Assembly: GCA_041665365.1 (NCBI GenBank)
Contig: JBAYIY010000007.1
Coordinates: forward strand, 11,103 to 75,102
Direction: 5' to 3'
Source: Patescibacteria group bacterium
Lineage (GTDB): Bacteria > Patescibacteriota > Patescibacteriia > UBA9570
Length of the DNA: 64,000 bases
The notes beneath the pieces were generated by a model that was given only the letters and a program-made list of their open reading frames with translations, searched no databases and was not told the DNA's origin. Every line of letters starts with the position of its first letter. The first letter of the stretch is position 1. Shown in pieces: positions 3,147-48,543 of the stretch. The position numbers were made by a program, and so were the translations under genes.

Positions 3147-3266
3147 TAAAATCACGCAGCAAGAATTTTCTATAATTCCATATCGAGCCGATCCAAATAG
3201 AGAATTAAATACGCATTAATAACCTAGCTGCGTAAGTAACTACTCGAAATGTACTTTTATGCAGGG
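3147..3266. repeat. copy 1 of a ~110-120 bp direct repeat (second copy at 4603-4713)
   Basis: AAAATCACGCAGCAAGAATTTTCT.TAATTCC.TATCGAGCCGATCCAAA.AGAGAATTAAATACG.ATTAAT.ACCTAGCT...TATGCAGGG shared at roughly 90% identity, with an 11-nt indel. Confidence 0.8.
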
Positions 3267-3443: not shown

Positions 3444-4517
3444 CTAACCCACCGTGACGGTAGTGACGGCACTGGTAATCGTTTTTCCGTTATGACGGTA
3501 TTTTACTTTATACTTGGCAGTTTTCCTAGCTGTATATGTTTGCGTGTAATATCCTATCTCCGCAGTAGTTAAAGTATCAATTTTTGTATAACTAGTTTTT
3601 CCAGACTTTTTTTGCCAGACCGTAACAGTTTGATTCTGTTTCCCATTTTCAAGCCAACCGTATAAGCGGAATTGTTTACCCTTATTTAGTTCCGTCTTGC
3701 TGGCGGCCAAACTAATGGGCAATTGCTCCTGTACTGTTAACGTTTTGGTCACTGTAGTAGCCTTGGCACTTGGAGCAGTGGTTGCAGATTCAGAAAATAT
3801 CACATTGAGCTCAAACACAGCTCCTCCAGTCACTTCGGTAATATCTAAGGAAGCTTGATTGTCGCCGTCAAATACCGCCATGCCAGCCCAGGCTAGCTCT
3901 TGACCACTATATTCACTCAATAAATCCTTAATTCCATCTGGCATGAAAACGGTCATTGAACCAGTCTTACCTACTGGACCAACCAGTGAATAACCAAACG
4001 CCGGAGTGGCTTGATCTGGTGATGGTGGAATCAAGGCCCAATCTTGAACATTGGTGGATAGCCAAAAACCTTTCATTTCTTCCGGTGGACCATCTTCACC
4101 AGCGGCATTATCTGCTACACCAACTAATGCCACCACCGCGATATTCTCTGGACTGGAACTATCGGTAGGTTGCTTCATACCGGATGGCACAAATTGAACA
4201 GTATAGGTACCGGCATCAGCATTGTACACAGGCGGTGTATCCACGGACATAGTTGTGCCTGGTGCAACCACGCCAGCTGGTTCTTCGTCAACGGTAAACA
4301 CAGCGGTATATTCAACACCGTTAGCAATGTCTGCTTCATCAATCAGCCAGCCAGCCAACACCACCCGTTCCGGTGCGCCACCCATCATATCAGTAATATC
4401 CTGCTGTGGTGCTGGGCTGATGCTTTGTAGGTCGGCTGTAAACGCCCAACCCGACAATGGCAGCAACAAACTAACCCCAAGACCTAGAAAATATTGGAAT
4501 GATTTATTCATAAACAT
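3444..4517 (-). CDS. secreted hypothetical protein with a basic C-terminal ~90-aa domain resembling the C-terminus of the BNR-repeat protein at 4850-7105
   Basis: Signal peptide LGLGVSLLLPLSGWAFTA; its C-terminus (...KYKVKYRHNGKTITSAVTTVTVG) resembles that of the 751-aa protein (...KFKVRWTP...VVTVRVE). Confidence 0.5.
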   Translation of the reverse strand: MFMNKSFQYFLGLGVSLLLPLSGWAFTADLQSISPAPQQDITDMMGGAPERVVLAGWLIDEADIANGVEYTAVFTVDEEPAGVVAPGTTMSVDTPPVYNADAGTYTVQFVPSGMKQPTDSSSPENIAVVALVGVADNAAGEDGPPEEMKGFWLSTNVQDWALIPPSPDQATPAFGYSLVGPVGKTGSMTVFMPDGIKDLLSEYSGQELAWAGMAVFDGDNQASLDITEVTGGAVFELNVIFSESATTAPSAKATTVTKTLTVQEQLPISLAASKTELNKGKQFRLYGWLENGKQNQTVTVWQKKSGKTSYTKIDTLTTAEIGYYTQTYTARKTAKYKVKYRHNGKTITSAVTTVTVG

Positions 4518-4602: not shown

Positions 4603-4713
4603 AAAATCACGCAGCAAGAATTTTCTGTAATTCCGTATCGAGCCGATCCAAACAGAGAATTAAATACGTATTAATTACCTAGCTACTATTCGAGATGTAC
4701 TGCTATGCAGGGG
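4603..4713. repeat. copy 2 of the direct repeat; its right end overlaps the 3' terminus of tRNA-Trp
   Basis: See copy 1; ends in ...TATGCAGGG, which is the complement of the tRNA 3' acceptor end. Confidence 0.8.
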
Positions 4714-4778
4714 GTGCAGGAATCGAACCCGCCCTAATGGTTTTGGAGACCACTGTACTACCGATATACGAACCCCCT
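4706..4778 (-). tRNA. trnW: tRNA-Trp (anticodon CCA)
   Basis: Reverse complement reads AGGGGGT-TC-GTAT-ATCGGTAG-TAC-A-GTGGT-CTCCAAA-ACCAT-TAGG-GCGGG-TTCGATT-CCTGC-ACCCCCT-G-CA; cloverleaf with anticodon loop CU-CCA-AA, T-loop TTCGATT, near-identical in architecture to E. coli tRNA-Trp. Confidence 0.9.
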
Positions 4779-14179: not shown

Positions 14180-16292
14180 AGAAATTTATTTCGATGGGTC
14201 GACCACTGGCATCAGTAAACAAATCTCTCAATTCAGTTGCATCTTCGGCCACACCGGCGGCATACAATTCAGTCGCCAGACGATTCAATGGTCTTTGTAA
14301 TTCAGTCTCGTCAATGGTTGTTAAGTTTGATGGTTTTTTAAAAAAACGCGACATCAACCCAGCCAACCCGGTTGGCTTGTCCAACTCAACCAGAAAGTAA
14401 TTTTCGGGCAAACCAAGTTGCTCAGCCTTGTCTCTTAAAATGTTTACTATTTCTTGCAACCAGGCCGGCCGATTTGGTTCACTAAGGTTAATGCGTAAAC
14501 CTTCTTCCAACCACCGTTTAAACAAAACCCGTTTGATGTCTTTTTGATGAAAAAACGGTGGTTTATATACTGTTCCGGCCACAGTAGCCATGTGGGTTGA
14601 AGGTTTTTCTGGAATACCCCGAGCTAATTGCTGAATATAGGGGTGGTTCTGTAAAGTTTGTACAGTGCGCATGGCTGCCCCAATTTTACCGTGGTCTTGC
14701 GCGTGAATATTCAAACCTAGCGCACCGGTCATTACTTCAAGTAATGGTTTATGTAAATTATTAAAACGATCTACATAATCAAGGCGATCCCCTCGTGTAA
14801 AAGGTAGGTCACTTTGGGCATGTGTATAATCATACACCGGTAAAGTACGCATGACTGTTGGTACAACTTTCCACTGCTGCAAATCTTTTAAATCATCGAA
14901 TAGAATAACATCATGGGCAAATTTTGGATAAATAGTATCATGGGTGGCGCGGCGAAATAGCTCATCTTTAACGGTTTGTGTAACTGTAGTAACTCGTTCA
15001 CCTGTGACGTGTTCAATATGGTCTGGTGTAATAACCGCATCAAAATGATGTCGTAATAATTTTTGTAAACGTTGGTAAATTTTACCAAATCTGGTTTTGG
15101 ATAATCTTGTACCAGAACCAATCATGGCAGCATGTTGAAAAGGCTGAAAAGTTGATTCAAAAGAACGCGTCGGTGGTAATTGATACCCAGTGTTTATTGT
15201 AGCTGGTAGAGCTACTTGTTTTTCAGAGCGTGATAATCGCGCTTGTACAGTAGTGGCGAGTTCGGCTAACGATGATGGTATAGTTGGTAAGGCACTAGTC
15301 GTGATTGAATCAGTGGAAGTTTTGGGTGGTAACTCCTCGAGTAATTTTAAAGCGGCGTTTTTAAGGTCGATAGATTCTTGTCCGGTAAGTGTGTAGTGAA
15401 ATTCAAAACCGCGTAACCAGCGCTGGGCTAAATTAGCTATAAATGTGTCTTTATGTTGTTTAATCTTCGCTTTTTTATCAAAATGTGATTCTATTTTCCA
15501 GTATTTTAATGCGGCTGGATTAGTGTGATCAAATAGATCTTCCAATTTTGTAAATGGCTCAGTGGGTGGGAGTTCTGGAGGTACTAAAACAGCATGTTGA
15601 CGATGGAATTTAATCGCATCTGTCATTATAGTGCGATTAATACTGTCGGGATCATGCAATGTAGTATCTTCTGAAGTTGGGTTTTGGACTAAATCTTCTA
15701 AAACTTTACCGCGATAATCATTATCTGGTGAACGAGGTTGGGAAAACATTCTTGACTCAATGGCTAGTGGATTAATCAATGAACAATATAGACTTTCGCC
15801 CGATAAGGCTAAATTCGCTTCGTAAAGAATAGCGTTGTGATAACCGAATCGGTCATGTTCTAGTGCATCATACACGGCTGCCAGAGCAGTGCGCATATCA
15901 AGCTGTAATCGAAATACTTCTAAAGCCATTAAACCATCTCGAAAAGTGGCGCGAGGATTATTTTCTATATCATCGAGTATATTATTCCAATCTTCAGCAG
16001 TGCGAGCTACTTGTAATTGTTGTAACAGTTTTTCTCGAGCTAAATCTTTGGCGTCTTCTAGTGCCGCATCACTAAACAGTTGCTGCGGTTGATCGGCATT
16101 ATACACAATGCGTTCTGGGCGATGATACTCTTCTTCCAGTGCGGTTAAACGGTTCTGTGTGATGGGGTGAGTTTTTGTAAAATAATGTTCAATCACTTGT
16201 TTCCAGTTTGGGCGACCAGTGGCTTGCAGTAAGACACGTTGTAACTCAATGGCGGCTTGTGGATTATAGCCGGCTAAATCGGCGCCTTCCAT
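14163..16292 (-). CDS. large hypothetical protein (709 aa), co-directional with and overlapping the 1451-aa gene by 17 nt
   Basis: Long ORF, no recognisable motifs; upstream in-frame sequence IIGHELRHL lies between its ATG and the TAA of the preceding ORF. Confidence 0.5.
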   Translation of the reverse strand: MEGADLAGYNPQAAIELQRVLLQATGRPNWKQVIEHYFTKTHPITQNRLTALEEEYHRPERIVYNADQPQQLFSDAALEDAKDLAREKLLQQLQVARTAEDWNNILDDIENNPRATFRDGLMALEVFRLQLDMRTALAAVYDALEHDRFGYHNAILYEANLALSGESLYCSLINPLAIESRMFSQPRSPDNDYRGKVLEDLVQNPTSEDTTLHDPDSINRTIMTDAIKFHRQHAVLVPPELPPTEPFTKLEDLFDHTNPAALKYWKIESHFDKKAKIKQHKDTFIANLAQRWLRGFEFHYTLTGQESIDLKNAALKLLEELPPKTSTDSITTSALPTIPSSLAELATTVQARLSRSEKQVALPATINTGYQLPPTRSFESTFQPFQHAAMIGSGTRLSKTRFGKIYQRLQKLLRHHFDAVITPDHIEHVTGERVTTVTQTVKDELFRRATHDTIYPKFAHDVILFDDLKDLQQWKVVPTVMRTLPVYDYTHAQSDLPFTRGDRLDYVDRFNNLHKPLLEVMTGALGLNIHAQDHGKIGAAMRTVQTLQNHPYIQQLARGIPEKPSTHMATVAGTVYKPPFFHQKDIKRVLFKRWLEEGLRINLSEPNRPAWLQEIVNILRDKAEQLGLPENYFLVELDKPTGLAGLMSRFFKKPSNLTTIDETELQRPLNRLATELYAAGVAEDATELRDLFTDASGRPIEINFYDEAR

Positions 16293-33197: not shown

Positions 33198-33222
33198 ATT
33201 TACCCCCACGTATAGACATGCA

Positions 33223-33303
33223 ATCATGTAGAGACGTGCCATCATGTAGAGACGTGCCATCATGTAGAGACGTGCCGGCGGCACGTCTCTACATGATGGC
33301 ACG
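33223..33303. repeat. palindrome family C: three tandem copies of ATCATGTAGAGACGTGCC followed by the inverted half GGCGGCACGTCTCTACATGATGG, forming a perfect stem of about 20 bp
   Basis: Read directly; lies in the rplJ upstream region. Confidence 0.8.
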
Positions 33304-33450: not shown

Positions 33451-33966
33451 ATGCCAAAAAATCGAGCGCAAAAAGCGCAATTGCTTGAGGCAATAACGGG
33501 CGCACTCAATCATAAAGGGGTCGTGTTTTTTTCCCATACTGGGTTAAAAGTCACAGATCTAGAAGCTTTGCGCAAAGACATGCGCAAAGAAAACAGTACT
33601 GTGATGGTGGCTAAACGCAACTTATTATTACTCGCTTTAAAACAGCAAGGCATAGCAGTTGACGCAGCACAGTTGGATGGAGCCGTCGCCGTCGCCGTGG
33701 GTGATGACGAAATCACTCCAGCCAAAGTGGTAGCCACATTCAAGAAGAAACACGAAGCAGTAGCTTTCTTCGGAGGGTTAATGGAACATCGTTTCATGAC
33801 CGCCGCTGAAGTGCAACAGCTTTCCACCTTACCAGGTAAGCAAGAGTTATTAGCCAAATTAGTTGGTTCACTCCAGTCGCCCATGACTGGTATGGTCAAC
33901 GTCTTGGTCGGTAATGTCCGCGGCCTGGTTACAGCATTGGATGCGATTCGTGCCCAAAAAGTGTAG
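33451..33966 (+). CDS. rplJ: 50S ribosomal protein L10
   Basis: 171 aa; typical L10 N-terminus and position immediately upstream of rplL. Confidence 0.9.
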   Translation: MPKNRAQKAQLLEAITGALNHKGVVFFSHTGLKVTDLEALRKDMRKENSTVMVAKRNLLLLALKQQGIAVDAAQLDGAVAVAVGDDEITPAKVVATFKKKHEAVAFFGGLMEHRFMTAAEVQQLSTLPGKQELLAKLVGSLQSPMTGMVNVLVGNVRGLVTALDAIRAQKV

Positions 33967-34500: not shown

Positions 34501-34596
34501 CTTTACCCCCAACCCCCTTGCAGGGGGCTAAGAAAAGATTTTTCTAAATTTTCTTTCTTATCCCCCTGCAAGGGGGACAGAGGGGGTAAAATCCGA
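34501..34596. repeat. MITE-like repeat family A copy: TTTACCCCCAACCCCCTTGCAGGGGGCTAAGAAAA ... TTATCCCCCTGCAAGGGGGACAGAGGGGGTAAAAT (terminal inverted repeats, each containing a CCCCC-TGCA-GGGGG hairpin)
   Basis: Other copies at 38960-39032, 40066-40220 and 42429-42562 (the last inverted, with a 37-nt insertion in one hairpin loop). Confidence 0.8.
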
Positions 34597-38959: not shown

Positions 38960-39032
38960 CTTTACCCCCAACCCCCTTGCAGGGGGCTAAGAAAAAATGT
39001 TTTTAAAAAACTTCTTTGGGGGACTAAGGGGG
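38960..39032. repeat. repeat family A copy (right arm degenerate)
   Basis: CTTTACCCCCAACCCCCTTGCAGGGGGCTAAGAAAAAATG...GGGGGACTAAGGGGGTACATTCC. Confidence 0.7.
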
Positions 39033-39087: not shown

Positions 39088-39951
39088 ATGAATTATCTTC
39101 GCATTGTCTTTGCCCATTGGATTGCCATATTGTTCATCACCACTGCGGCCGCGGCGCTTACGGTCGGGTTATCTTTTATTCCTACCCAGATGTATTCATC
39201 GGAGGTGTCTTTATTGATTGTGCAGAAACAAGCGCAGTATGTTGACCCTTACACATCACAGAAAGCTGCCGAAAAGTTGGGGCAAAATTTAGTGAATGTG
39301 ATCGACTCATTTGATTTTTTAAACCGCGTTTTGGCCACCGGCACAGTCTCACCCGATTTATTTAGTGCTTCCACTGATGCCCGTAAAAAACAATGGGAAG
39401 CCATGACTGATGCGGAAATGTTTAGTAACACTGGTGTGTTGCATATCACCGCTTATGCCCCCACCGCCGGTGCCGCTGAAGATGTGGTGATGGCCATGAG
39501 TACAGTGCTCACTACTAATTCATCAGATTATCATGGTGGGGGAGATACCGTTGAGATTAAGCTCATCGATGGGCCGGTCACATCGGATAGTCCGGTAAAA
39601 CCAAACATTCCATTAAATGGTGCGATTGCGGCTGTGTTAGGCCTAATCGCCTCGGCGGCTGTATTTATTGTTTATGAAGAAACCAAACGGTTACAAGATG
39701 AACAAGCCAAGGTGAGGTATGTGCAAACCGTCACGCCTGGTAGAGACGTGCCGCCGGCACGTCTCTACGATGATCGGATTGAAAAATCTGATCAAATCAT
39801 AGAGCCCCAATATAAGGTATTAGATGAATACCCCAAACAGCCATATGTGTATGGTGCGGAATTGAAGGATGAAGAACCTCGCCAAGGGGCGGGTGAACCT
39901 CGCCAAGGGGCGGGTGAACCGGTGTCGATGCAGGATCATTTGAAAAAATAG
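39088..39951 (+). CDS. Wzz/YveK-like polysaccharide chain-length-determinant N-terminal domain protein with a C-terminal EPRQGAG tandem repeat
   Basis: N-terminal TM helix followed by YSSEVSLLIVQKQ... typical of Wzz/Cap8A N-termini; a family-C palindrome (39740-39768) and a 21-bp tandem duplication (39886-39927) lie inside the ORF. Confidence 0.4.
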   Translation: MNYLRIVFAHWIAILFITTAAAALTVGLSFIPTQMYSSEVSLLIVQKQAQYVDPYTSQKAAEKLGQNLVNVIDSFDFLNRVLATGTVSPDLFSASTDARKKQWEAMTDAEMFSNTGVLHITAYAPTAGAAEDVVMAMSTVLTTNSSDYHGGGDTVEIKLIDGPVTSDSPVKPNIPLNGAIAAVLGLIASAAVFIVYEETKRLQDEQAKVRYVQTVTPGRDVPPARLYDDRIEKSDQIIEPQYKVLDEYPKQPYVYGAELKDEEPRQGAGEPRQGAGEPVSMQDHLKK

Positions 39952-40065
39952 GGGTTTTCCCCAGTAATTTAGGTAAAAAAACGAGTTCAAATAAATGGAC
40001 TCGTTTTAGTATTGACAAAAAGTAGAAATAATGCTAAATTGTTCAGTTATTTTTGGGGACATATG

Positions 40066-40220
40066 TACCCCCTAGCCCCCTTGCAGGGGGTAAAAGATAA
40101 CAATAAACTTATGCACCTTTTCACTATGAACAGTTAGTACGAACGGGGATACCATGAGTGTACCCCCAACCCTCATCTCTTATCCCCTTGAAAGGGGGAC
40201 AGAGGGGGTAAATTCCGGAG
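40066..40220. repeat. repeat family A copy (long internal region), immediately abutting leader module copy 1
   Basis: GTACCCCCTAGCCCCCTTGCAGGGGGTAAAAG ... CTTATCCCCTTGAAAGGGGGACAGAGGGGGTAAATTCCGGAG. Confidence 0.75.
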
Positions 40221-40760
40221 TGGGTAAACACCAGTTAGTCTCACACGAATCAGATGAGAACACCATCAAAGTGAAGGTGTTGCCATGTGGTTCGTCTGTA
40301 TAGCCGGTGATCAGCAATGATCGCTGGCTGTCATGAATCACTCAACCCGAAAGGGTTAAGCACATTTACAATCTACTTTCCTACTTCGACTCGTTTCACT
40401 CGCTCAGTATAAATTTATTGAGCATGTAAGCTTGTCGAATGATCATCGGTAGCGATATACAGACCTCATCAATATACATACTTCTTTGAGTACACCACCC
40501 TAGCCCTCCTATTCTAGGAGGGAATAAGAATAAATTTTCTTACTCCCTTCCTACAATAGGAAGGGCCGGGGATGGTGTATTCCGGAGAGGGATACGTATC
40601 CGGAGAGGTCTCCATATCGCTACCGATGAAACCAACAATATCGGAGCTCGGTTCCCCAACGGGGAGACATTCGTCGCGGCAATTTCGCCGTGATGTATGT
40701 CCACCCGGACGTGAACCGGGACCGATCGACTTCACTCGACTACATGGAGCTACGAAAACA
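40204..40760 (+). repeat. leader module copy 1 (~555 bp), a mosaic duplicate of 42546-43053, ending at the start codon of the first GC-rich gene; contains a family-B repeat bracketed by a 23-bp imperfect inverted repeat (ATCGGTAGCGATATACAGACCTC / GAGGTCTCCATATCGCTACCGAT)
   Basis: Shared blocks GGGGGTAAATTCCGGAGTGGGTAAACACCAGTTAGTCTCACACGAATCAGATGAGAACACCATCAAAGTGAAGGTGTTGCCATGTGGTTCG, AATCATCGGTAGCGATATACAGACCTCATCAA, the whole family-B element, and GAACCGGGACCGATCGACT...GGAGCTACGA.AATGACG. Confidence 0.8.
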
Positions 40761-42236
40761 ATGACGTTCAAGAACATCCTCGCGATCTTCACGTTCATCT
40801 TCGCCATTCTCGCCCCGGCGACCGTCGCCCAGGCCCAGGAGAAGTGGGAGGATCCAAAAGTGGGTCCGTTCACTCTCGGGTACTGGTCGAAGCTCGATGC
40901 CGGCGCGACCAGTGTCGACGCCGCGGCGGCCGGGATCATGAAGAACTTCAAGGAGTGTGAGAGCAAGTACGGCCAGGGTGGGTGCTACATCCAGTTCGAA
41001 TCATCTACTGACATCAACCGCTGGGACAACACCAAGAATGGCAAGGACGACGCATTGCACGGTGGGCTCGGAGAGGGACGCACCGCGGTCCTCAAGGACG
41101 CGGTGTTTTCTCGATCCGCAAGGATCAAGGAATACTCGGTCACCGACTACCCCCACCACGGTGCGAAAGATGGATGGCGGTACTCCTGGGCGACGATCAT
41201 GCCCAAGGAAGGTGCCTCCGCGATGCCGAAGGTGTCGGCCGACCCCAACAAGAGGTGGAGCTTCCTCACGGAAGTGCTCCTCCGCCAGACCGATAACCTC
41301 TGTCCCACGATGGTGCGGGCGGACGCGGTCACGCGAACCTACACCCTGCAGGGTCAAACCTGCGGGTGCAGCACGTTCGATGCAGTGCCCAGCACCCGCC
41401 AGTTGGAGGTCAGGAACGACCTCACCTGGTTGGGAAAGGTCGTCGCGGACCGCTCGAAGTGGTCCGACGCGAAGACTTTGACCTGGACGGAAGTCCGGGC
41501 CGCTCTCGAGGAGGGCACCGAGTCCCGCGTCATCGAAGTCGACGCGCTCGGCGATCCGTCCTCCACGCCCGACGGTCTGTCCGTTGAGTTCGTGGAGTCG
41601 GAGACCCTGCTCCGGGTGCAGTTCCCGGACAGGTGCTCGCCGATCCTCGACGCCGCGAAGGCAGAGGCCGACGCCAAGGCGCAAGCCAAGGCTCAGGCCG
41701 ACGCCGACGCCCGCGAGTCCGCAAGGCTCGCGGCGTACAACACCGACTTCATGGTCGGTGGGTCGGTCGCGGGTACGGGGACGTTCATCCCCAAGTACAG
41801 CCCCTTCAACCCGGGCAGGGGTTTCGACCTCGCCGGGCACGTCGAGGGCGGTGCGGTGATCGGCGGCGGGTACGGCGCGTGGGCTTTCGGGCTCGGCGTC
41901 GGCCCGTCGTGGGACCCGAACTGCCTGACCCCCGGCCAGGTTGACCTCGAGGCCTTCACCGGCCCGTGGCTCAACAGGCAGGGGAAGGTCGGGTTCTCCG
42001 CCTTCCTGAACGGATCTGCGGGCTTCACCATGTACAACGGTGAAGTCCTCACCCCGCGGTACCGCCTGGGTCTCAACCTGGGCGTGCCCGTGCAGGTGGA
42101 GCGTGAGCTCTACCTGGTTCCCCAGATCGGCCCCGTGGTCGACTGGGTGAGCGGGCAGGTGCAGGCGACCGGCGGCTTCGCGATCACCGAGCGAGTCGGG
42201 ATCGCGGGTGGTCTGCGGATCATCAAGACGTTCTGA
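40761..42236 (+). CDS. GC-rich, probably horizontally acquired secreted protein with a C-terminal OMP-like beta-barrel region (C-terminal Phe). The start is set at MTFKNILAIF; the ORF-track start at 40572 lies inside the repeat leader
   Basis: Signal peptide MTFKNILAIFTFIFAILAPATVAQA; AKAEADAKAQAKAQADADAR low-complexity linker; glycine- and aromatic-rich alternating C-terminal region ending ...GLRIIKTF; codon usage strongly GC3-biased, unlike flanking genes. Confidence 0.6.
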   Translation: MTFKNILAIFTFIFAILAPATVAQAQEKWEDPKVGPFTLGYWSKLDAGATSVDAAAAGIMKNFKECESKYGQGGCYIQFESSTDINRWDNTKNGKDDALHGGLGEGRTAVLKDAVFSRSARIKEYSVTDYPHHGAKDGWRYSWATIMPKEGASAMPKVSADPNKRWSFLTEVLLRQTDNLCPTMVRADAVTRTYTLQGQTCGCSTFDAVPSTRQLEVRNDLTWLGKVVADRSKWSDAKTLTWTEVRAALEEGTESRVIEVDALGDPSSTPDGLSVEFVESETLLRVQFPDRCSPILDAAKAEADAKAQAKAQADADARESARLAAYNTDFMVGGSVAGTGTFIPKYSPFNPGRGFDLAGHVEGGAVIGGGYGAWAFGLGVGPSWDPNCLTPGQVDLEAFTGPWLNRQGKVGFSAFLNGSAGFTMYNGEVLTPRYRLGLNLGVPVQVERELYLVPQIGPVVDWVSGQVQATGGFAITERVGIAGGLRIIKTF

Positions 42237-42428
42237 TCTGAGTAGGAAAGTAGGTTAGGGTGAGGGGGTATAGGTTGTGTCGCAAGTCTGCGAACAATCT
42301 GTACCTCCTCCCCACCTACACAAATATGAATAAGGGATAATGTCTCTCGAGGTAGTGACCTCGGTAAACATGGTTCCTGATTCAACTGAATAAGGAATCG
42401 GTCTTTAAAAATAATCTATGGTTAAAAC

Positions 42429-42562
42429 CTTTACCCCCTCTGTCCCCCTCTCGCCTCTGCGAAGCCGCTACGGCGGAGCACGGTGCAGGGGGATAAGAAA
42501 AGAAGTTTTAAAAATATCTTCTCATAGCCCCCTGCAAGGGGGTTGGGGGTAAATTCCGGAGT
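42429..42562. repeat. repeat family A copy in inverted orientation, with a 37-nt GC-rich insertion in one hairpin loop
   Basis: TTTACCCCCTCTGTCCCCC-[TCTCGCCTCTGCGAAGCCGCTACGGCGGAGCACGGTG]-CAGGGGGATAAGAAAAG ... TAGCCCCCTGCAAGGGGGTTGGGGGTAAATTCCGGAG. Confidence 0.75.
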
Positions 42563-43053
42563 GGGTAAACACCAGTTAGTCTCACACGAATCAGATGAGA
42601 ACACCATCAAAGTGAAGGTGTTGCCATGTGGTTCGAAGAGTCATAGTCGATCAGCAATGATCGCTTGTGACCACGAAACACAATTTGTTCTTTAAAATCT
42701 TCTGCTAAGAATCATCGGTAGCGATATACAGACCTCATCAAGCATACACACTTCTTTGAGTACACCACCCTAGCCCCCCGCCTTGCCGGCGTGGCAGGTC
42801 CTATTCTAGGAGGGAATAAGAATAAATTTTCTTACTCCCTTCCTACAATAGGAAGGGCCGGGGATGGTGTATTCCGGAGAGGGATACGTATCCGGAGAGG
42901 TCTCCATATCGCTACCGGTGAAAACAATACCGGCGTGCTCGGTTCCCAGAATGGGAAAGATGCGGTTGTGGGAATGTTCCCATGACATGTGTTCTACCCT
43001 GTTCAAAAGAACCGGGACCGATCGACTACACAATTTCGACTGGAGCTACGACA
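42546..43053 (+). repeat. leader module copy 2 (~510 bp) preceding the second GC-rich gene
   Basis: See copy 1; the central segment differs (about 50 nt versus about 120 nt), and the first hairpin of the family-B element carries a CCCGCCTTGCCGGCGTGGCAGGT insertion. Confidence 0.8.
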
Positions 43054-43839
43054 ATGACGCTCAAAAACATCGTGATCTCGCTCGCGCTCGTCGTCGGTTG
43101 CAAGATGGGCCCGGTGCAGGAATGTGACTCGGACTCGGACTGCTTCGAAACCAACACCAACTCCGATACCGACACCGACGCGGACACGGACACGGACGCC
43201 GACGCTGATACGGACACGGACTCCGACACCGATACCACCGAAACCGACGTGGACAACGACGGCGACGGGTACACCGTGGACGGCGGGGACTGCAACGACG
43301 CCAACGCCAGCGTCCACCCGGGCGCGACCGAGTACTGCAACGGCGTCGACGACGACTGCAACGGGTCGATCGACGACAATGACACCGACGGGGACGGGTA
43401 CGTCTCCGACGACTGCACGTCATATGACGGAGTCGCCGGCCTCCCCGGTGGTGATTGCGCGGATTCGATCGGGACGACGGCGTCCTGGTCGAACAGCGAT
43501 ATCCACCCGGGGCAGTTGGAAATGTACGACTGGATCGACACTAACTGCGACGGCACCGCCGACGATGGATGTAGTATGTTGTGCGACACCGACGGCGACG
43601 GATACGAGAATTTCGAACAGGGCAGCGGGCCCGAGTTCGAGTGCGTGGACGCGTCGTTCGTGGCGGATCAGTCCGCCTCGAGCAGCCCGTTCGATACGAC
43701 GATCTCGTGGACGTATGCCTCCAGCGGAGTGGTTTACTCCGGTGTGAACGCAACGTGCGAAATGACGGCGGCCCAGCAGGTCGATCCGTCAACCTGGAGG
43801 ACGATCACGTCCATCCAGGCCGAGATGGCCACCCGCTAA
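43054..43839 (+). CDS. GC-rich, probably horizontally acquired lipoprotein with a (D-T/D-A)n linker and repeated Cys-rich MopE-type 'putative metal-binding' motifs
   Basis: Lipobox LALVVGC; DTDTDADTDTDADADTDTDSDTDT; DGDGYTVDGGDCNDANASVHPGATEYCNGVDDDCNG and DGDGYVSDDC...DTNCDGTADDGC repeats. Confidence 0.6.
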   Translation: MTLKNIVISLALVVGCKMGPVQECDSDSDCFETNTNSDTDTDADTDTDADADTDTDSDTDTTETDVDNDGDGYTVDGGDCNDANASVHPGATEYCNGVDDDCNGSIDDNDTDGDGYVSDDCTSYDGVAGLPGGDCADSIGTTASWSNSDIHPGQLEMYDWIDTNCDGTADDGCSMLCDTDGDGYENFEQGSGPEFECVDASFVADQSASSSPFDTTISWTYASSGVVYSGVNATCEMTAAQQVDPSTWRTITSIQAEMATR

Positions 43840-44107
43840 AGGTGGTTATCTCAACCGGAGATTGGTAGTTCTCCGGGCACAGACATAAGTGCAAACAAAA
43901 AACCAAAATCTTCTAGCAGAAGATAGATCAGCTCGGGAGGTGGCATGAGTAGAGCACACAAACGCTCCTCGCCACCTCCCACCTTCGCTCTAAGAAGAGC
44001 TTCGGCGGGCAAGCCCACCTAATAATGTATCCAGAATCAAATAGTATTATGGATAGATTAATGGGAAATAGTAATTAACAAATAGGAGTTAGGAAATAAA
44101 TAGGGGG

Positions 44108-44134
44108 TTGACGTGACCTTTTTTTTGATATAAT
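44108..44134 (+). promoter_or_regulatory. strong sigma70-like promoter (TTGACG-15 nt-TATAAT) 9 nt upstream of the antitoxin ATG
   Basis: GGGGGTTGACGTGACCTTTTTTTTGATATAATATCGATTTATG. Confidence 0.45.
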
Positions 44135-44142
44135 ATCGATTT

Positions 44143-44391
44143 ATGACTACGGCTAAATTAGTAAAAACAGTAAATTCATGTCCAAAGACAAGTTTGAATG
44201 ACAAACCGGTTGTTATGATACCCATGGAACTATGGGAAACGCTTCAGGTACAATTACTAACAAGACCAGTCCCGACTTATTATTTGCAAGGAAAAGAGGC
44301 AAAACAATTAGATCATCTTGTTCAACAAGGTATAAACGCAGCTCGATCGAGAAAAACTAGAGTAATAACTTCACTTGCAGAGTTAGATTAG
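44143..44391 (+). CDS. Phd/YefM-like type II antitoxin
   Basis: 82 aa; ...NDKPVVMIPMELWETLQ... matches the core Phd/YefM fold pattern. Confidence 0.45.
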   Translation: MTTAKLVKTVNSCPKTSLNDKPVVMIPMELWETLQVQLLTRPVPTYYLQGKEAKQLDHLVQQGINAARSRKTRVITSLAELD

Positions 44392-44395
44392 CCCA

Positions 44396-44716
44396 TGAAC
44401 ATACAGGTCACAGATCGTTTCGTTAAGCAATATAAAAAATTTATCGATGAGGTTAGATGATGATTATGGAAAAATAAAAATACGAAGTCACACTGAAAAA
44501 GATATTAAAATGTGCTACCAGCACATTTTTTTGTATTCAGCGTTATCAGTTCTTTCAGCGCCTCAGCGATCCATTTGGCCGTGTGGCCTTGTCTCCACAA
44601 CAATCATGGCTAGCACTGTCATATATGTCCACATCACGGCGGTACCTTGGAGTAGATTATCACTGACACTAATTGTTAGCGCGGCAATAATTAAGGCCAT
44701 ACCAAACAGAGCATAG
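44396..44716 (+). pseudogene. decayed RelE/ParE-family toxin remnant (21-aa N-terminal fragment MNIQVTDRFVKQYKKFIDEVR-stop, followed by a frameshifted continuation that overlaps the 3' end of the convergent O-antigen-ligase gene)
   Basis: A typical RelE/ParE N-terminus lies 4 nt after the antitoxin stop and is then interrupted. Confidence 0.35.
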
Positions 44717-45966
44717 TGTTTTTGCCAGCTGTCTTCATGGTGGCTAACATAATTCCAGAATAGTGTTACTAACAAACCTAGCCAGAAACCAAGATACAGA
44801 GCCAAACCAACGAAGCCGGTTTCAATGGCTAAACGGAGATAATCATTATGGGCTTCAGGGTCATCAAACAAACCGATATCGCCCTGTTGTCTTAAAGTCA
44901 CAAAGTTGCCTAAACCGTAACCGAGAAGGGGAGAATTGAGGGTTTGCGGTGCCATAGTTTGAAACACCTGTAAGCGCCAATCAATCGAATCGGCTTCCTC
45001 ATCACGACTGGTTAGGCGATGTAAGAGGTTTATTTTATTTAGATCATAATTAAAAGTATTGATGGTAACAGTGTTGATTACTTGCCACAACAAAAATGCA
45101 CCGACTAAGACAGTAGCAATAGTGAGTAATTGTTTACGATAATATTTTAGGCCAATTAATATTTGAATGACGACAAAACCAATCCAGGCACCTCGAGTAT
45201 AGGTGAATAATAACATCACCAACCCCAAGCCGATTAGCCATGGATATATTAAAGACCGTTGTTCAGGTTTTTTAGTCAGTTGGGTGATTAATAATAAATT
45301 TATGATACATACCAAATAAAACCCAAACACATTCGGGTGACCAAAGGTGCCATAGACGCGGTTATCTAAACCACCAAATGATAGCCCGGTGGCGGTAATA
45401 AGCTGCACCAAGCCAGCGGCTAATGGTATCACCAGAGCCACGGCTAGTACCGGTGTTAGCCGCGTGATACTGTGTGGTTGTGTGGTAGCCACGTGGTAGG
45501 CAATTATAAAAATAATCACAATCGAACTGAGGCGGAGCCATTCACTCAATGAGATAAATGTATCCAAGCTGACACCCAAGGTGGCGGCTCCCCAGATTAA
45601 AACTCCAATCAGCCAGCCCAATTGGGTAGTGGCACTAAGTTCAACCCGTTCTCTAAGTAGAATTACTAAGAACCACACAATCACCAATATTGCCACCATG
45701 GAAGTTAAATTTATAGTGACTGATCGAATGGTTAAAAGGCCATAGCCAGAAAATATATCAATGATCGGGCGAAAGATGAGTAGGGCATATAAACCATACT
45801 CGGTTTTTAATAAAAAAATTGGGGCGATAATTACAATGGCCGCTAAGCCAATGGCGGATGTAGCAGAAATATCTCCAAATACTATCCAGCCTAATACACT
45901 TAACACTGTTAGGCTGTATATAATTAAAAGTATGGTGTTGAATTTTGAAAGTGGGGAGAAAGACAT
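44563..45966 (-). CDS. O-antigen ligase / Wzy-like polytopic membrane protein
   Basis: 467 aa, about 12 TM helices, with a large periplasmic loop containing YTRGAWIGF... in the position expected for a Wzy_C domain. Confidence 0.5.
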   Translation of the reverse strand: MSFSPLSKFNTILLIIYSLTVLSVLGWIVFGDISATSAIGLAAIVIIAPIFLLKTEYGLYALLIFRPIIDIFSGYGLLTIRSVTINLTSMVAILVIVWFLVILLRERVELSATTQLGWLIGVLIWGAATLGVSLDTFISLSEWLRLSSIVIIFIIAYHVATTQPHSITRLTPVLAVALVIPLAAGLVQLITATGLSFGGLDNRVYGTFGHPNVFGFYLVCIINLLLITQLTKKPEQRSLIYPWLIGLGLVMLLFTYTRGAWIGFVVIQILIGLKYYRKQLLTIATVLVGAFLLWQVINTVTINTFNYDLNKINLLHRLTSRDEEADSIDWRLQVFQTMAPQTLNSPLLGYGLGNFVTLRQQGDIGLFDDPEAHNDYLRLAIETGFVGLALYLGFWLGLLVTLFWNYVSHHEDSWQKHYALFGMALIIAALTISVSDNLLQGTAVMWTYMTVLAMIVVETRPHGQMDR

Positions 45967-45989
45967 TGAGATTATTATAACACATCAAT

Positions 45990-46024
45990 CCAGTAGAGAC
46001 ATGCCATGGCATGTCTCTACTGGA
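45990..46024. repeat. family-C perfect palindrome CCAGTAGAGACATGCCATGGCATGTCTCTACTGG (17-bp stem) between the GC-rich minus-strand gene and the O-antigen-ligase gene
   Basis: Read directly; likely transcription terminator or insulator. Confidence 0.7.
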
Positions 46025-46103
46025 TTGATAAAAAAAAGAGGCCCCGGGAGATTGTCATGTACATGCGTAGTACAGACAACCTCAACCGGGGCGTCCAAAT
46101 TCT

Positions 46104-47159
46104 TTACTTGACGGCGACCGTAGGGTTCGCCACCACGAGGATACTCCCCATGATGGTCTCCACGTCGCCGGCGTAATTCCCGCCGGCATTGTGGAGGTCG
46201 ATCCCCTCGGCCTTCACCACCTCTTCCCGGACGCCGTCAGCGACCGGGAAAGCCACCTCGCCCTCGCCGTACGAATCGTCGACGACGAAGAAGAAATGAT
46301 CCCGGGCGACTTCACAAAGTCGTTTGCCCGGGAGAGTGGTCAGACTCGAACACTTGAACCCCTCCGGCAGCACGAGGATGCTGCCCATCGTGAGTTCCGG
46401 AATCGTTCCGGTGTACTCACTCAGGGCGTAGCTATCCCCGGAGCCGGCGAGGGGCCCGGTGAAGCAATCGTAGCCCGACGAGGCGCCATCGCCGCAAGAG
46501 AGGTGGGTATGATCCACCTCAATGGGCAACGGCCGCCCGATCGGGCCAGTCTGAGTCAATTCTCCCACACGCACCGCCTGGGTCGCGGTCGTGTGGGAGC
46601 CACCGTGAGCCCCAACCCAGCGGGTGGAGTCATATCCCTTCTCACACGCGCTGAACGGCGCGGAGTCGGGGAGGACCCACCCGGACGAGCCGTCGAAGTA
46701 GCTGATTTCAACAACGGTACCGTCAGGCTGCAGGGCCGTGACGATCCCATTGTTGTACAGATCATCCGACGTGTCCCTCATGGCGAAGGAATCGGGGAGG
46801 TAAACCTCCCTCGTTCTCCTGCCATCGGGGGCTGTCACGGTCACCGGTGACGAGTCTTTCGACCCGTCGAGGACAAAAACCGGGTCGATGTCGACCCAGT
46901 CAAGTCCTCCGTCCCAGTCCGTCTCGACCGTCCGGGCGATCTTGCGATCAACCTGGAGGTCACGGATCTGGAACGGCACCGAGGCCCAGCACTCGGCCGG
47001 GGTCTCGGTGTCGGTGTCCGCGTCAGTGTCAGAGTCGGTGTCCGTCTCCGCTTCGGGGCAGGTCGCCCCGGGCAGAGACGGATCACAATTGAGCTCTCCA
47101 CACCCCGCCACCAAAATGGTGACCAGGACGAGGAGCAGCTCGATGATGTAGCGCAACAT
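46104..47159 (-). CDS. GC-rich, probably horizontally acquired lipoprotein (351 aa) with a TDTDSDTDADTDTE linker
   Basis: Lipobox ILVAGC; good RBS AGGAGcagtcATG; GC-rich codon usage; several conserved Cys/His (HTHLSCGDG) but no confident family assignment. Confidence 0.55.
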   Translation of the reverse strand: MLRYIIELLLVLVTILVAGCGELNCDPSLPGATCPEAETDTDSDTDADTDTETPAECWASVPFQIRDLQVDRKIARTVETDWDGGLDWVDIDPVFVLDGSKDSSPVTVTAPDGRRTREVYLPDSFAMRDTSDDLYNNGIVTALQPDGTVVEISYFDGSSGWVLPDSAPFSACEKGYDSTRWVGAHGGSHTTATQAVRVGELTQTGPIGRPLPIEVDHTHLSCGDGASSGYDCFTGPLAGSGDSYALSEYTGTIPELTMGSILVLPEGFKCSSLTTLPGKRLCEVARDHFFFVVDDSYGEGEVAFPVADGVREEVVKAEGIDLHNAGGNYAGDVETIMGSILVVANPTVAVK

Positions 47160-47286
47160 GACTGCTCCTTACCCCTGGTCGGGGTGGGGGGACTGTTTGT
47201 TCGTCAAGTAATATGAATTTGGAAAGAACTAGTGTCGCTTACAGACAAAATTTGCCCATAAACGAACCGCACAATATACCCTATTT

Positions 47287-48543
47287 TTGACGTTTTGTCA
47301 AGGGTTCTGCTACAATAAGCCCGTGAATATTCTGCAAATCAATAAATTCTTCTATCGGCGGCGGGGGGCAGAAACATACTTATTTGATCTCTCTGAATTA
47401 TTAAGAAGTAAAGGTCATAATGTCGCCGAGTTTGCTATGGTTCATCCAGACAACGAACCATCACCGTGGAGTGAGTATTTTGTGTCCGAAGTTGATTATA
47501 GCCAAAAAACTTTAGCGGGAAATATTAAAGCGGCAGCGAGAATGTTTTGGAGTACAGAAGCGCAAAGAAAACTGGATGCGTTGTTGGATGTGTTTAAACC
47601 AGATGTGGCACACATTCATAATATCTATCATCAAATTAGTCCATCTATTTTAGTCACCTTAAAGAAACGGGGGATACCGATAGTATTAACCCTGCATGAT
47701 TACAAATTAATTTGTCCGAATTACGAAATGTTTACGGGCAACCAAGTGTGCATGCGCTGTAAAGGGCGTAAATATTATAATGCGGTGTTGCATAAATGTA
47801 TTAAAGGTTCCGTGGGTATGAGTGCACTGGTTATGTTTGAAATGTATCTGCATAAAATGATGCAAGTGTATGAACATGAGGTTGATTGTTTTATATCACC
47901 ATCACAGTTTTTAAAAAAACAAATGTTGGATTGGGGTGAGCAAGTGAAGCGCATCGAGGTTATACCAAATTTTGTGCGTGCACCCATCACGGACGGTGTG
48001 ATGGACGGGTCGGATGCATCCCGTGTAAACGATGTCTTATACGCAGGTGCTCTTTCCCGCATCAAAGGGGTCGATTTAATCCTTGACAATTTCCGGAAAA
48101 ATCGGTACTCTGGCCGGTTACTATTAGCTGGGTCTGGGCCAATGGAGGCCGAAATAAAAGCTGAGAGTAACGAAAATATTGTGTATTTAGGACAGCTTAG
48201 TAAACAGGAATTAGCCAATCGGGTTAAAGAATGCCGGGCGGTGATTGTGCCATCGCGGTATCATGACAACTTTCCCTATGCAGTGCTTGAAGCTTTTGCA
48301 GCCGGGAAACCGGTGATTGCCAGTCACCGGGGTGGTATGCCAGAATTGGTGCAGCCGCGTCACACTGGCTGGTTATTTGAACCAACTAAACCAGACAGTT
48401 TAACAGCGGCTTTAACCGAAATGTTTAAACGAGACGATTTAGTAAAACAGTTTGGTGAGGCGGCCTGTCAAGTAGCCAAAACACACAACCCAGAAAAACA
48501 CTATGAAACGATTATTTCTCTTTATCAGTCTCTGCTTAGCTAG
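47287..48543 (+). CDS. GT4-family glycosyltransferase (probable GTG start at 47323, VNILQINKF...)
   Basis: C-terminal E..AAGKPVIASHRGGMPELV typical GT-B/GT4 motif; candidate promoter TTGACG...TACAAT at about 47262-47292. Confidence 0.6.
   Translation: MTFCQGFCYNKPVNILQINKFFYRRRGAETYLFDLSELLRSKGHNVAEFAMVHPDNEPSPWSEYFVSEVDYSQKTLAGNIKAAARMFWSTEAQRKLDALLDVFKPDVAHIHNIYHQISPSILVTLKKRGIPIVLTLHDYKLICPNYEMFTGNQVCMRCKGRKYYNAVLHKCIKGSVGMSALVMFEMYLHKMMQVYEHEVDCFISPSQFLKKQMLDWGEQVKRIEVIPNFVRAPITDGVMDGSDASRVNDVLYAGALSRIKGVDLILDNFRKNRYSGRLLLAGSGPMEAEIKAESNENIVYLGQLSKQELANRVKECRAVIVPSRYHDNFPYAVLEAFAAGKPVIASHRGGMPELVQPRHTGWLFEPTKPDSLTAALTEMFKRDDLVKQFGEAACQVAKTHNPEKHYETIISLYQSLLS

Follow-up and report, generated by a model that had tools for sequence, protein, structure and literature searches.

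Three GC-rich genes, designated g1 (40761-42236, + strand), g2 (43054-43839, + strand) and g3 (46104-47159, - strand), are located in a 64,000-nucleotide stretch (in the following, the window) of the genome of a Patescibacteria group bacterium (GCA_041665365.1, contig JBAYIY010000007.1, positions 11,103 to 75,102), an ultra-small organism with a low-GC genome. The genes are resident, lineage-conserved members of the envelope polysaccharide locus (Wzz ... Wzy ... GT4-GHL15) of a Patescibacteria clade, and we infer that their high G+C content at third codon positions (GC3) is actively maintained within this lineage and not imported. With moderate confidence, this maintenance is attributed to selection acting on the transcript. 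The initial annotation of the window, made from the sequence alone, had explained the genes by repeated or mosaic acquisition from a GC-rich donor, possibly a host or prey organism. This could not be upheld, as the orthologues are syntenic and GC-rich in the near relatives and no GC-rich donor was found.

The GC content amounts to 0.65 for g1 and to 0.63 for both g2 and g3, with values for the first, second and third codon positions (GC1/GC2/GC3) of 0.60/0.49/0.86, 0.54/0.49/0.85 and 0.62/0.48/0.79, respectively. That third positions of these genes are dominated by G or C, unlike the rest of the window, had been noticed before and is borne out by the numbers: GC3 is 0.79-0.86 compared to 0.24-0.47 in the 46 other open reading frames (ORFs) of the window (44 ORFs, 0.24-0.46; rplJ, 0.47; rplL, 0.43). 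Calculated per kb, the GC content reaches 0.60-0.66 at 41-42, 43-44 and 46-47 kb and ranges from 0.35 to 0.46 outside 40-47 kb, where the maximum in 1-kb windows is 0.458; in 200-nt windows the peak is 0.73. GC1 and GC2 are raised just mildly and therefore the effect sits at synonymous sites. Codon choice is inverted in every amino-acid family, C-ending and G-ending codons are both enriched (g1-g3 vs. native genes: TTC 95% vs. 19%, AAG 85% vs. 17%, TTA 0% vs. 46%), and the resulting codon usage is like that of a genome with 65-70% GC. The enrichment ends within approximately 20-40 nt of the start and stop codons of the three genes, and the genes between g2 and g3, i.e., an ORF of 82 amino acids and the wzy gene, are of ordinary composition. 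Ribosomal-protein and housekeeping genes do not show the inverted usage, and from the GC3 of rplJ and rplL it follows that the GC-richness is not explained by high expression alone. A transition-only conversion (A-to-G, T-to-C) of native codons was rejected as well, as it fails to account for the codon choice found, such as the 59% share of CTC among the leucine codons.

The g3 family contains 13 homologues with 43-60% identity. Three of these are encoded on contigs of 158, 196 and 64 kb and lie, as in the window, between GT4-GHL15 and Wzy_C; past Wzy, these contigs encode g1-/g2-like proteins followed by Wzz, a trypsin-like protein and a DUF5656 protein. The orthologues of g1-g3 on the three contigs have a GC3 of 0.55-0.93 compared to 0.31-0.50 in the flanks. 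For the loci L003, L004, L005, L058 and L061 (loci of relatives are given here by L numbers), the orthologues are syntenic with a GC3 of 0.55-0.94 vs. 0.31-0.59 for the flanking genes; Wzy orthologues with 45-69% identity served as synteny anchors. First searches for g1 using the single sequence or a profile of three sequences returned only the query's own cluster, with low-complexity words filling the 8000 candidates, and an exhaustive phmmer search was used instead. It identified 12 relatives in 1.84 billion representatives, which are 370-570 amino acids long and share a common architecture. Eight of these were looked up: L058, L060 and L061 are found in loci of the window type with Wzy, g3 or MopE neighbours, L059, L062 and L064 are on short contigs whose flanks carry leader motifs of the window type, L063 is on a contig too short for context, and P0021 shares 67% identity with the orthologue of g1 in L005. 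None of the g1 or g3 family members with readable context was found in GC-rich genomic surroundings (5.8e9 and 1.84e9 proteins searched). The best hits fall into the same low-GC lineage, an outcome that the initial annotation itself had named as refuting its reading; the relatives with readable context lie in low-GC Patescibacteria-type loci. No match was obtained for g3 in plasmid records or for g1 in phage records, and a metagenome scan with the g3 alignment gave nothing confirmable. The donor search covered the families of g1 and g3; the MopE motif of g2 is widespread.

In a wider scan, the Wzy alignment was compared with one genome per GTDB species and with JGI metagenomes. In loci with a Wzy of 26-39% identity (L010-L013, L025, L066, L068-L070), the slot between Wzy and Wzz also holds GC-rich genes, with a GC3 of 0.60-0.80 vs. 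a background of 0.2-0.55. These genes encode a protein of approximately 600 amino acids with signal peptide, LysM and a barrel-like C-terminus ending in W or F (weak Porin_4/LptD matches), a lipoprotein of approximately 290 amino acids and a small secreted protein, and no homology of these to g1 or g2 was detectable. The left border of the conserved slot is formed in the window by a gene for a Wzz-type chain-length determinant (39088..39951, + strand; PF02706, E 2.5e-6) with native composition (GC3 0.46), and Wzz orthologues flank the GC-rich slot in L005, L010, L012, L025 and L068-L070. GC-richness thereby recurs in orthologues or analogous same-slot genes of at least 15 loci. The pattern is lacking in loci with a Wzy identity of at most approximately 33%. 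In L075 (9288-15470; Wzy 33% identical), which has approximately 50% GC, the 6-kb interval between Wzy and Wzz is without compositional contrast. Two further observations concern the arrangement: the GHL15-like lipoprotein gene of distant loci is GC-enriched (GC3 0.59-0.69; L010 7511-8716, L068 358-1668) while the adjoining main GHL15/FG-GAP gene is not, and, with respect to Wzy and Wzz, the block of g1 and g2 with its promoter has opposite orientations in L003, L005 and L058 on the one hand and in the window, L004 and L061 on the other.

Whether the high GC3 is a leftover or is maintained can be judged from the synonymous sites. In almost all comparisons between two lineages, conserved residues are encoded by the same codon as often as codon usage alone would predict (g1, 0.35-0.63 observed vs. 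0.38-0.61 expected; g3, 0.31-0.56 vs. 0.34-0.53), which means that synonymous sites are saturated between lineages. Despite this saturation, GC3 stands at 0.8-0.9 in the majority of lineages. In L004 and L061, which form the one close pair, Wzy is 87%, g3 76% and g1 only 37% identical. This pair offers a natural experiment on how the GC-rich state is lost and how alleles are replaced: GC3 of g1/g2/g3 is 0.64/0.68/0.55 in L004 and 0.87/0.93/0.80 in L061, a difference of approximately 0.25. GC3 can thus decay quickly once the sustaining factor weakens. Saturation with a GC3 that is still high, together with this fast drop, makes passive retention unlikely, and a fresh import is unlikely as a clade-specific leader borders the GC-rich tract on one side and, for g1 and g2, a clade-specific 3' arm on the other. 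The identities of the genes are incongruent with those of their flanks: g1 of L004 is 50% identical to that of L005 and 37% to that of L061, and g3 of L005 is an outlier although Wzy and GT4 of L005 are close to those of the window. Alleles were therefore exchanged within the pool of the clade, or they are very old polymorphisms in it; such an exchange by itself creates no GC-richness.

The genes are preceded by promoters of the sigma-70 type. The g1 promoter (40012..40040, + strand; TTGACA-17-TAAATT with TG extension, scan score 10/12) lies approximately 720 nt upstream of the ATG, and alignment shows that a TTGACA-N17-TAxxxT block is kept upstream of the g1 orthologues in L003, L004 and L005. 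The g3 promoter (47273..47301, - strand; TTGACA-17-TATATT, 11/12) is divergent from the GT4 promoter (47287-47316, + strand), and the region upstream of g3 is weakly conserved in the same three loci. Between promoter and start codon, the mRNAs of the g1 and g2 type carry a conserved structured leader of 170-400 nt. A comparison of L003, L004, L005 and L058-L062 revealed one common order of elements: a pyrimidine-rich motif 1 (TTTACAA/TTTGAxAA followed by …CTTYC…); a long stem with a covarying base (CGGTAGCG/CGCTACCG, CGGCAGC/GCTGCCG, CGGAAGC/GCTTCCG, CGATTGAA/TTCAATCG) and a variable apical insert; a GGATCCC-N-GGGA hairpin; a variable hairpin; a CCCGG-N-CCGGGAC hairpin; and finally GGAG and the ATG. 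In the window, the structured core of the g1 leader (40387..40760, + strand) contains the stem 40445-40467/40605-40627 with variable apical insert, a conserved 3' element at 40644-40730 and the ribosome-binding site GGAG at 40746-40749. The g2 leader (42545..43053, + strand) is a near-copy of blocks of the g1 leader (100% identity over 91 nt, 98% over 129 nt) with its conserved 3' element at 42935-43026. For five orthologous leaders, RNAalifold predicted 42 pairs, and compensatory double changes occur in 20 of these; the complete g1 leader (40047-40775) has a predicted folding energy of -311.6 kcal/mol (z = -13.7 vs. shuffles). A covariance model of the 3' element, R1, scores 71 bits at 40644-40730 and 66.9 bits at 42935-43026; beyond its source sequences the R1 search found nothing, neither further copies in the window nor leaders of the g2 type or of distant loci. 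The leader has no Rfam match at the gathering score, and in E-value mode only sub-threshold chance hits were obtained over 39.9-47.4 kb.

Upstream of the core, the distal g1 leader (40047..40369, + strand) carries GC palindromes resembling repetitive extragenic palindromes (REP-like, 40060-40217) and blocks at 40204-40294 and 40309-40341 that recur before g2 (repeat families D2, D6 and D12). The initial annotation had taken the 5' leaders to be formed by native dispersed repeats. This applies to the REP-like palindromes at 40060-40217 and 42420-42545; the leader core, however, is confined to these genes and constitutes a conserved, structured RNA. REP-like GC palindromes (CCCCCTTGCAGGGGG, GGGGGTAAAWTCCG) are dispersed over intergenic regions of the window (34501-34595, 38960-39007, 40060-40217, 42420-42545), the last two clusters lying in the distal leaders of g1 and g2, and leader stems of L005 carry similar palindromes (CCTCCCCCAATTGGGGGAGG) as inserts. 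The 3' strand GATCCGGG of the leader (40703-40722 in the window; homologous in L058-L060) can pair with the adjacent CCCGG to give a local hairpin or with the upstream CTTGGATC in a long-range helix, which is CTCGGTTC/GAACCGGG in the window and covaries. These two folds are mutually exclusive and switch-like.

A second element connects the leader with the 3' end of the same gene. Motif 1 is complementary to a sequence that starts 0-20 nt after the stop codon of its own gene, so that both arms would form a helix bracketing leader and coding region. For g1 of the window, the pyrimidine-rich 5' arm within motif 1 (TTTACAA...; 40370..40386, + strand, AATCTACTTTCCTACTT) and the purine-rich, Shine-Dalgarno-like 3' arm (42240..42256, + strand, GAGTAGGAAAGTAGGTT), which begins 4 nt after the stop codon, form 17 contiguous pairs that are equalled in 0 of 200 shuffles. 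Brackets of 11-18 bp occur in nine of ten genes of the g1 and g2 type (L003 g1 15, g2 11; L004 g1 14, g2 17; L005 g1 13, g2 13; L060 g1 18; L061 g2 15 bp), and 0-3 of 200 shuffles are as good. The arm sequences vary from gene to gene (CTACTTTCCTAC/GTAGGAAAGTAG, CCCATCTTCTGCT/AGCAGAAGATGGG, TTTCTCTTACCTCA/TGAGGTAAGAGAAA). For g2 of the window, a 5' arm (42697-42707, + strand, ATCTTCTGCTA) pairs over 11 contiguous positions with a candidate 3' arm 75 nt after the stop codon (43914..43924, + strand, TAGCAGAAGAT). Taken alone, this bracket is not above chance in shuffles within +40, and it becomes a credible candidate only by homology to the g2-type brackets of L003, L004, L005 and L061 (11-17 bp; 0-2 of 200 shuffles). 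No bracket above the level of shuffles was found in g3 genes and distant loci. Directly 3' of the g1 arm follows a GC-rich hairpin (42257..42318, + strand, GGGTGAGGGGG...CCTCCTCCCCACC), read from the sequence, which is probably a 3' end-protecting or terminator structure; GGG..CCC hairpins likewise follow the 3' arm in L003, L004, L005 and L060.

The bracket is read as an RNA helix and not as a DNA inversion site, because no recombinase is found nearby and the arms covary and do not represent a fixed site. An inverton or shufflon was thus rejected: inverted repeats of 11-18 bp do flank leader and coding sequence, but no recombinase was found, the arms differ and covary, and three assemblies display one orientation. 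Integron cassettes were rejected since the genes are each equipped with a promoter and a leader of their own, the complement of the sequence following the stop codon lies upstream of the gene and not locally, and no integrase was found. Motif 1 was also considered as a sigma-70 promoter; a -35-like TTGACA/TTTACA is present but no -10 element at consistent spacing. Leader and 5'-3' bracket together appear to be a new bacterial RNA architecture supported by covariation.

The coding regions of g1-g3 are themselves predicted to be densely folded, with -56 to -75 kcal/mol per 150 nt compared to -32 to -45 kcal/mol for native genes. As control, synonymous shuffles that preserve protein, codon usage and dinucleotides were used. 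Relative to these, the z-score is -13.2 for g3 and -6.0 for g1 of the window, -5.8 for g1 of L058, -5.4 for g3 of L004 and -4.1 for g3 of L005; elsewhere it is -1.8 to -2.6, and native genes range from -0.25 to -2.9. Long inverted repeats of note were not found inside the coding regions.

All three genes encode exported proteins, as stated in the initial annotation: a signal peptide in g1, the lipoboxes LVVGC in g2 and LVAGC in g3, and (DT)n linkers are visible in the translations, from which signal peptides of the g1 family, lipoboxes of g2 and g3 and the linkers were read by eye. The g1 protein (491 amino acids) has a cleavable signal peptide (…ATVAQA/QE), a cysteine-containing alpha/beta N-domain, a long helix (292-324) and a C-terminal barrel ending in ...RIIKTF. 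In the AlphaFold model (mean predicted local distance difference test score, pLDDT, 76; approximately 90 for the barrel and C-terminal third), the last 160 residues are predicted as eight long antiparallel strands (329-342, 356-368, 372-384, 392-404, 412-425, 428-441, 450-467, 473-490), for which Foldseek returned the transmembrane domain of OmpA, NspA, Ail, OmpW and OprF (E 5e-5 to 1e-3, prob 1.00). The earlier description of a region resembling outer-membrane proteins with a C-terminal phenylalanine agrees with this model and with the OmpA, NspA and Ail matches, and the C-terminus of g1 is predicted to be an OmpA-like, eight-stranded outer-membrane beta-barrel. The C-terminal residue is F or W in nine of ten listed g1 relatives and L in one. 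Compared to the barrels of OmpA, OmpX, NspA and Ail, the order is reversed in g1, with the soluble domain first and then the barrel; g1 has no Pfam match at E <= 0.01, thus none to OmpA, and no meaningful NCBIfam match, and its host belongs to a phylum considered to have no outer membrane. A BamA-like gene was not found within the 64-kb window.

The g2 protein (261 amino acids) consists of the lipobox, the (DT)n linker, two Cys-rich motifs of the MopE type and a C-terminal domain without assigned function. The MopE assignment made earlier from the sequence was confirmed by two copies of PF11617 (E 4.7e-17, 62.3 bits vs. a cut-off of 27), and PF11617 was matched wherever tested in the g2 orthologues, which are 38-50% identical in L003, L004, L005 and L061. 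By its sequence, g2 is thus a lipoprotein with a putative metal-binding MopE motif. In the g3 protein (351 amino acids) the lipobox is followed by an acidic DT linker and a conserved domain of approximately 300 amino acids with the invariant motifs YNNGI, GAHGGSHxTATQA, RPLPIExDHTHL, RLCEVARD and VVDDS. The lipobox cysteine is kept in 12 of 13 full-length family members, and an Lgt gene is found near the L004 locus. The g3 model (pLDDT 80.7, predicted TM-score 0.77) gave no Foldseek match in the PDB; its fold bears a weak similarity to MltA, and the protein is possibly an MltA-like glycan-cleaving lipoprotein. MltA-type lytic transglycosylase lipoproteins and double-psi beta-barrel glycan binders are considered here as its candidate nearest counterparts. 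The products of g1-g3 are envelope proteins of a type usual in bacteria with two membranes (diderm bacteria), whereas the Patescibacteria are taken in the literature to have no outer membrane (PMC12102498).

Our preferred explanation for the high GC3 of this resident module, which we regard as somewhat favoured, is selection on the transcript. An mRNA that is GC-rich and densely folded and whose ends are protected and paired would have a long life and would resist RNases and Rho even without ribosome cover. Five features are individually known to prolong the life of an RNA and to exclude RNases and Rho, namely a high G+C content, dense folding, a leader with several hairpins, pairing of the ends and a hairpin at the 3' end, and from their combination in these sequences we infer a transcript-level rationale for the high GC3. 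By using codons hardly used by the rest of the proteome, the three proteins would be made under a regime apart from bulk synthesis, for example in a phase of storage or of starvation that precedes contact with a host. Stable mRNAs for attachment or envelope proteins, perhaps kept in store, would be of advantage to a tiny cell that can transcribe little or that starves during a stage without a host. The module may have entered the ancestor of the clade from a GC-rich diderm, an event that would not be needed to account for its present state.

Several observations weigh against selection on the transcript. The relative excess structure of the coding regions is in most orthologues similar to that of native genes (5-10%). 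Hairpin positions are not conserved, and structures derived from one g3 orthologue recur in the others only to the extent expected from sequence identity; any selection is therefore on overall foldedness and not on particular helices. GC-richness extends more widely than the RNA elements, as g3 and the distant loci have no bracket, so that a functional link between both is not required, and L004 retains leader and bracket despite its dropped GC3. A GC3 near 0.9 under AT-biased mutation needs strong selection at each site. Finally, sorting signals of the diderm type in a phylum thought to have no outer membrane fit a foreign origin (PMC12102498).

A close alternative is translational control at the codon level through the state of the tRNAs, i.e., starvation-charged isoacceptors or queuosine/wobble modification, by which the genes would form a regulon for host-contact proteins. 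It carries a small but appreciable probability. The complete codon inversion in all families, its restriction to coding sequences and its absence from ribosomal-protein and housekeeping genes would be expected from such a control, and so would the fact that the trait spans genes with and without leader and bracket; an epoxyqueuosine reductase gene near the L004 locus is only suggestive. NNC and NNU codons, however, are usually decoded by a single tRNA, so that half of the bias would be neutral to decoding.

Less likely is GC-biased gene conversion, which would drive synonymous sites to G or C at surface genes that are hot spots of recombination. The allele exchange described above for g1 of L004 and the ranks of g3, which are incongruent with those of Wzy and GT4, are in line with it, as are the recent conversion of the g1 and g2 leaders indicated by their 98-100% identity and the slightly raised GC3 of Wzy, Wzz and GT4 (0.41-0.46 vs. 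approximately 0.35). We nevertheless judge it improbable: the boundaries follow codons and not recombination tracts, Wzy between g2 and g3 is not enriched, alleles of 35-60% identity cannot form the required heteroduplexes, and the jump in GC3 from approximately 0.35 to 0.85-0.93 is too large, as to our knowledge it far exceeds any effect of biased gene conversion in bacteria. Equally improbable is an rRNA-like design that goes beyond transcript selection as set out above: GC-rich coding sequence, multi-hairpin leader and 5'-3' closure would characterise stockpiled, long-lived mRNAs for diderm-type proteins (OmpA-like barrel, lipoproteins, glycan-cleaving enzyme), which this epibiotic bacterium would, on contact with a Gram-negative host, deploy at the host's wall and outer membrane or insert there. 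Alternatively, the clade itself would have an outer-membrane-like layer. In both cases the composition would be a selected, heritable expression device instead of a trace of transfer.

A single ancient transfer from a GC-rich diderm to the ancestor of the clade, followed by passive and slow amelioration, would account for the diderm-type protein features and the composition together. The continuum of GC3 from 0.55 to 0.94 across lineages agrees with this, and so does the enrichment of AGG and TTG in the less GC-rich sets, as expected from decay of CGG to AGG and of CTG to TTG. The saturation of synonymous sites at a GC3 of 0.8-0.9 in most lineages stands against it, and so does the comparison of L004 and L061, where approximately 0.25 GC3 is lost in a short divergence while the clade is far deeper (Wzy 26-70% identity). 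The odds for passive retention are accordingly low.

Recent, repeated or mosaic horizontal gene transfer (HGT) of surface genes from a GC-rich donor, not yet ameliorated, is the reading that atypical composition usually receives, and four features point in its direction: the resemblance of codon usage to a genome of 65-70% GC; lipoboxes, outer-membrane beta-signal and MopE motif as typical of GC-rich diderms; the non-homologous GC-rich genes in the equivalent slot of distant relatives; and the incongruence of gene identities with flanking genes. We hold it to be very improbable and essentially excluded. All near relatives have syntenic GC-rich orthologues, and no g1 or g3 family member was found in a GC-rich context in the searches described. 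The GC-rich tract stops at the start and stop codons between clade-specific leader and 3' arm, where a foreign donor would have no homology for a swap, the promoters are native consensus promoters, and the leader RNA abuts the start codon as the complementary arm abuts the stop codon. No integrase, transposase or recombinase was matched in Pfam among the 39 window ORFs scanned, and apart from the leader duplication no flanking direct repeats of the GC-rich blocks were found. Among the features by which genomic islands are recognised, g1-g3 thus show atypical composition and neither a patchy distribution nor, for g1 and g3, donor homologues nor mobility signatures.

Two independent contigs reproduce the window with 100% identity, JGI contig Ga0376277_0075903 (4459 bp; window 40549-45007) and Logan contig SRR6484324_2017027 (1959 bp; window 40596-42554), and cover the junctions g1/trailer, leader/g2, g2/low-GC and Wzy. 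An assembly chimera, which the initial annotation rightly considered less likely, or a contamination by a GC-rich organism has a negligible probability and is essentially excluded. The sharp compositional switches and the duplicated leaders, which do break short-read assemblies, would fit it, but the junctions are identical in three assemblies, the alternating pattern recurs in at least 15 independent contigs of other samples, and promoters, leaders and terminators match the genes. As to the breaks, Logan contigs of relatives start and end inside the duplicated leader (L062, 1-30 and 2213-2242; L060, 1-345 and 1924-2401), and leader copies before successive GC-rich genes may act as assembly breakpoints and may explain that most family members sit on contigs of 1.5-7 kb.

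The locus surrounding the three genes is organised in three parts. DUF5656, trypsin-like and Wzz are followed by g1, g2, a small ORF, Wzy_C and g3, and these by GT4, GHL15/FG-GAP, CARDB-like, GT2, GT4, epimerase, UDP-glucose dehydrogenase, GT2 and GT4. Between g2 and g3, an ORF of 82 amino acids and one of 21 codons (44143..44462, + strand) have native low GC content; the ORF at 44143-44391 has no match in Pfam or NCBIfam, so that the toxin-antitoxin remnant previously proposed here finds no support, and an ORF of 81-82 amino acids is present at the equivalent place in L001 and L058. The O-antigen ligase placed between g2 and g3 by the same annotation was recovered as a Wzy_C/O-antigen-ligase-type membrane protein (44563..45966, - strand; PF04932, E 8e-21; GC3 0.41) of native composition. 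A perfect 20-bp hairpin (45985..46028, - strand), detected in a terminator scan between the g3 stop codon and the start of Wzy, is a probable terminator. The right border of the module is formed by a GT4 glycosyltransferase of native composition (47287..48543, + strand). Housekeeping genes are located farther to the left (BipA, RsmB, SufB, rplJ/rplL, proline biosynthesis, BacA, YceG). A diversity-generating retroelement or another retroelement was rejected, as none of the large ORFs scanned in the window matched a reverse-transcriptase domain and template/variable repeat pairs were not detected.

Elsewhere in the window, an Rfam scan returned tRNA as sole match, and tRNA-Trp (4707-4778, - strand) is its only tRNA gene. 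Beside it, an 82-nt direct repeat with 94% identity (3148-3229 and 4603-4684) brackets an ORF of 357 amino acids without Pfam match (3444-4517, - strand); the arrangement may have arisen by local duplication or by integration of a small element. An 18-nt unit (CATGTAGAGACGTGCCAT-like) occurs in 3-4 tandem copies at 33207-33276, just upstream of rplJ (33451-33966). The ORF at 9824-14179 (- strand, 1451 amino acids) has a C-terminal ABC1 atypical-kinase domain as sole recognisable domain, and the neighbouring ORF of 709 amino acids (14163-16292) has no match.

Islands of deviating composition, structured leaders, OmpA-like barrels and mRNAs closed between 5' and 3' end are known individually. 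Flexible cell-envelope islands for O-antigen, capsule or S-layer glycosylation, such as the cell-wall island of Haloquadratum walsbyi as outlined in PMC4535781, resemble the present locus in being surface-polysaccharide loci with the fastest-evolving genes of their region, allele exchange and deviating composition. In contrast to these, the deviation is confined here to three coding sequences and is GC3-specific instead of comprising the whole island; the positions are conserved in all near relatives, the deviation persists through saturating divergence, and mobility genes are absent. The hok mRNA of plasmid R1 folds back by its tac and fbi elements, and in this closed 5'-3' form it is stable and remains inactive until its 3' end is processed (PMC9841398). 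As in hok, a helix between the 5' untranslated region (UTR) and the 3' end would enclose the whole coding region; hok, however, is a toxin mRNA of approximately 400 nt under control of an antisense RNA, whereas the mRNAs considered here encode envelope proteins and are 1-2 kb long.

In rRNA operons, processing stalks with RNase III sites flank the mature RNAs, and here too complementary sequences are found upstream and downstream of a GC-rich structured RNA in an AT-rich genome; the enclosed RNA is in the present case a protein-coding mRNA with codon periodicity and conserved protein families. The 5' UTR of E. coli ompA and the leaders of S-layer genes are stabilising leaders of abundant envelope mRNAs. 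With these the g1 leader shares a long structured 5' UTR in front of an OmpA-like or surface-protein gene and a strong promoter, but it is up to approximately 720 nt long, has no sequence or Rfam relationship to them and is coupled to a 3' partner. The vls locus of Borrelia is a GC-rich antigenic-variation locus for a surface lipoprotein in an AT-rich genome that operates by segmental gene conversion from silent cassettes. Both systems have surface lipoprotein genes that are maintained in the lineage and much GC-richer than the genome; at the window locus, cassette copies or internal direct repeats were not found. In the literature we found no description of a clade-wide, long-maintained GC3 inversion limited to the coding sequences of private families in a low-GC genome, of a leader-plus-bracket RNA architecture combined with such an inversion, or of diderm-type envelope proteins in Patescibacteria. 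There is a real chance that the system will turn out to be something categorically new once its mechanism is known.

Atypical composition is routinely taken as a sign of recent HGT, a reading that fails for g1-g3. If selection at the level of transcript or decoding holds true, gene-specific GC content would be a regulatory trait, and compositional HGT detectors would systematically mislabel such genes. Neither an OmpA-like barrel with beta-signal nor diderm-type lipoproteins would be expected in a phylum to which no outer membrane is ascribed. Encoded in a surface-glycan locus, the proteins of g1-g3 are obvious candidates for the host-attachment interface of uncultured episymbionts.

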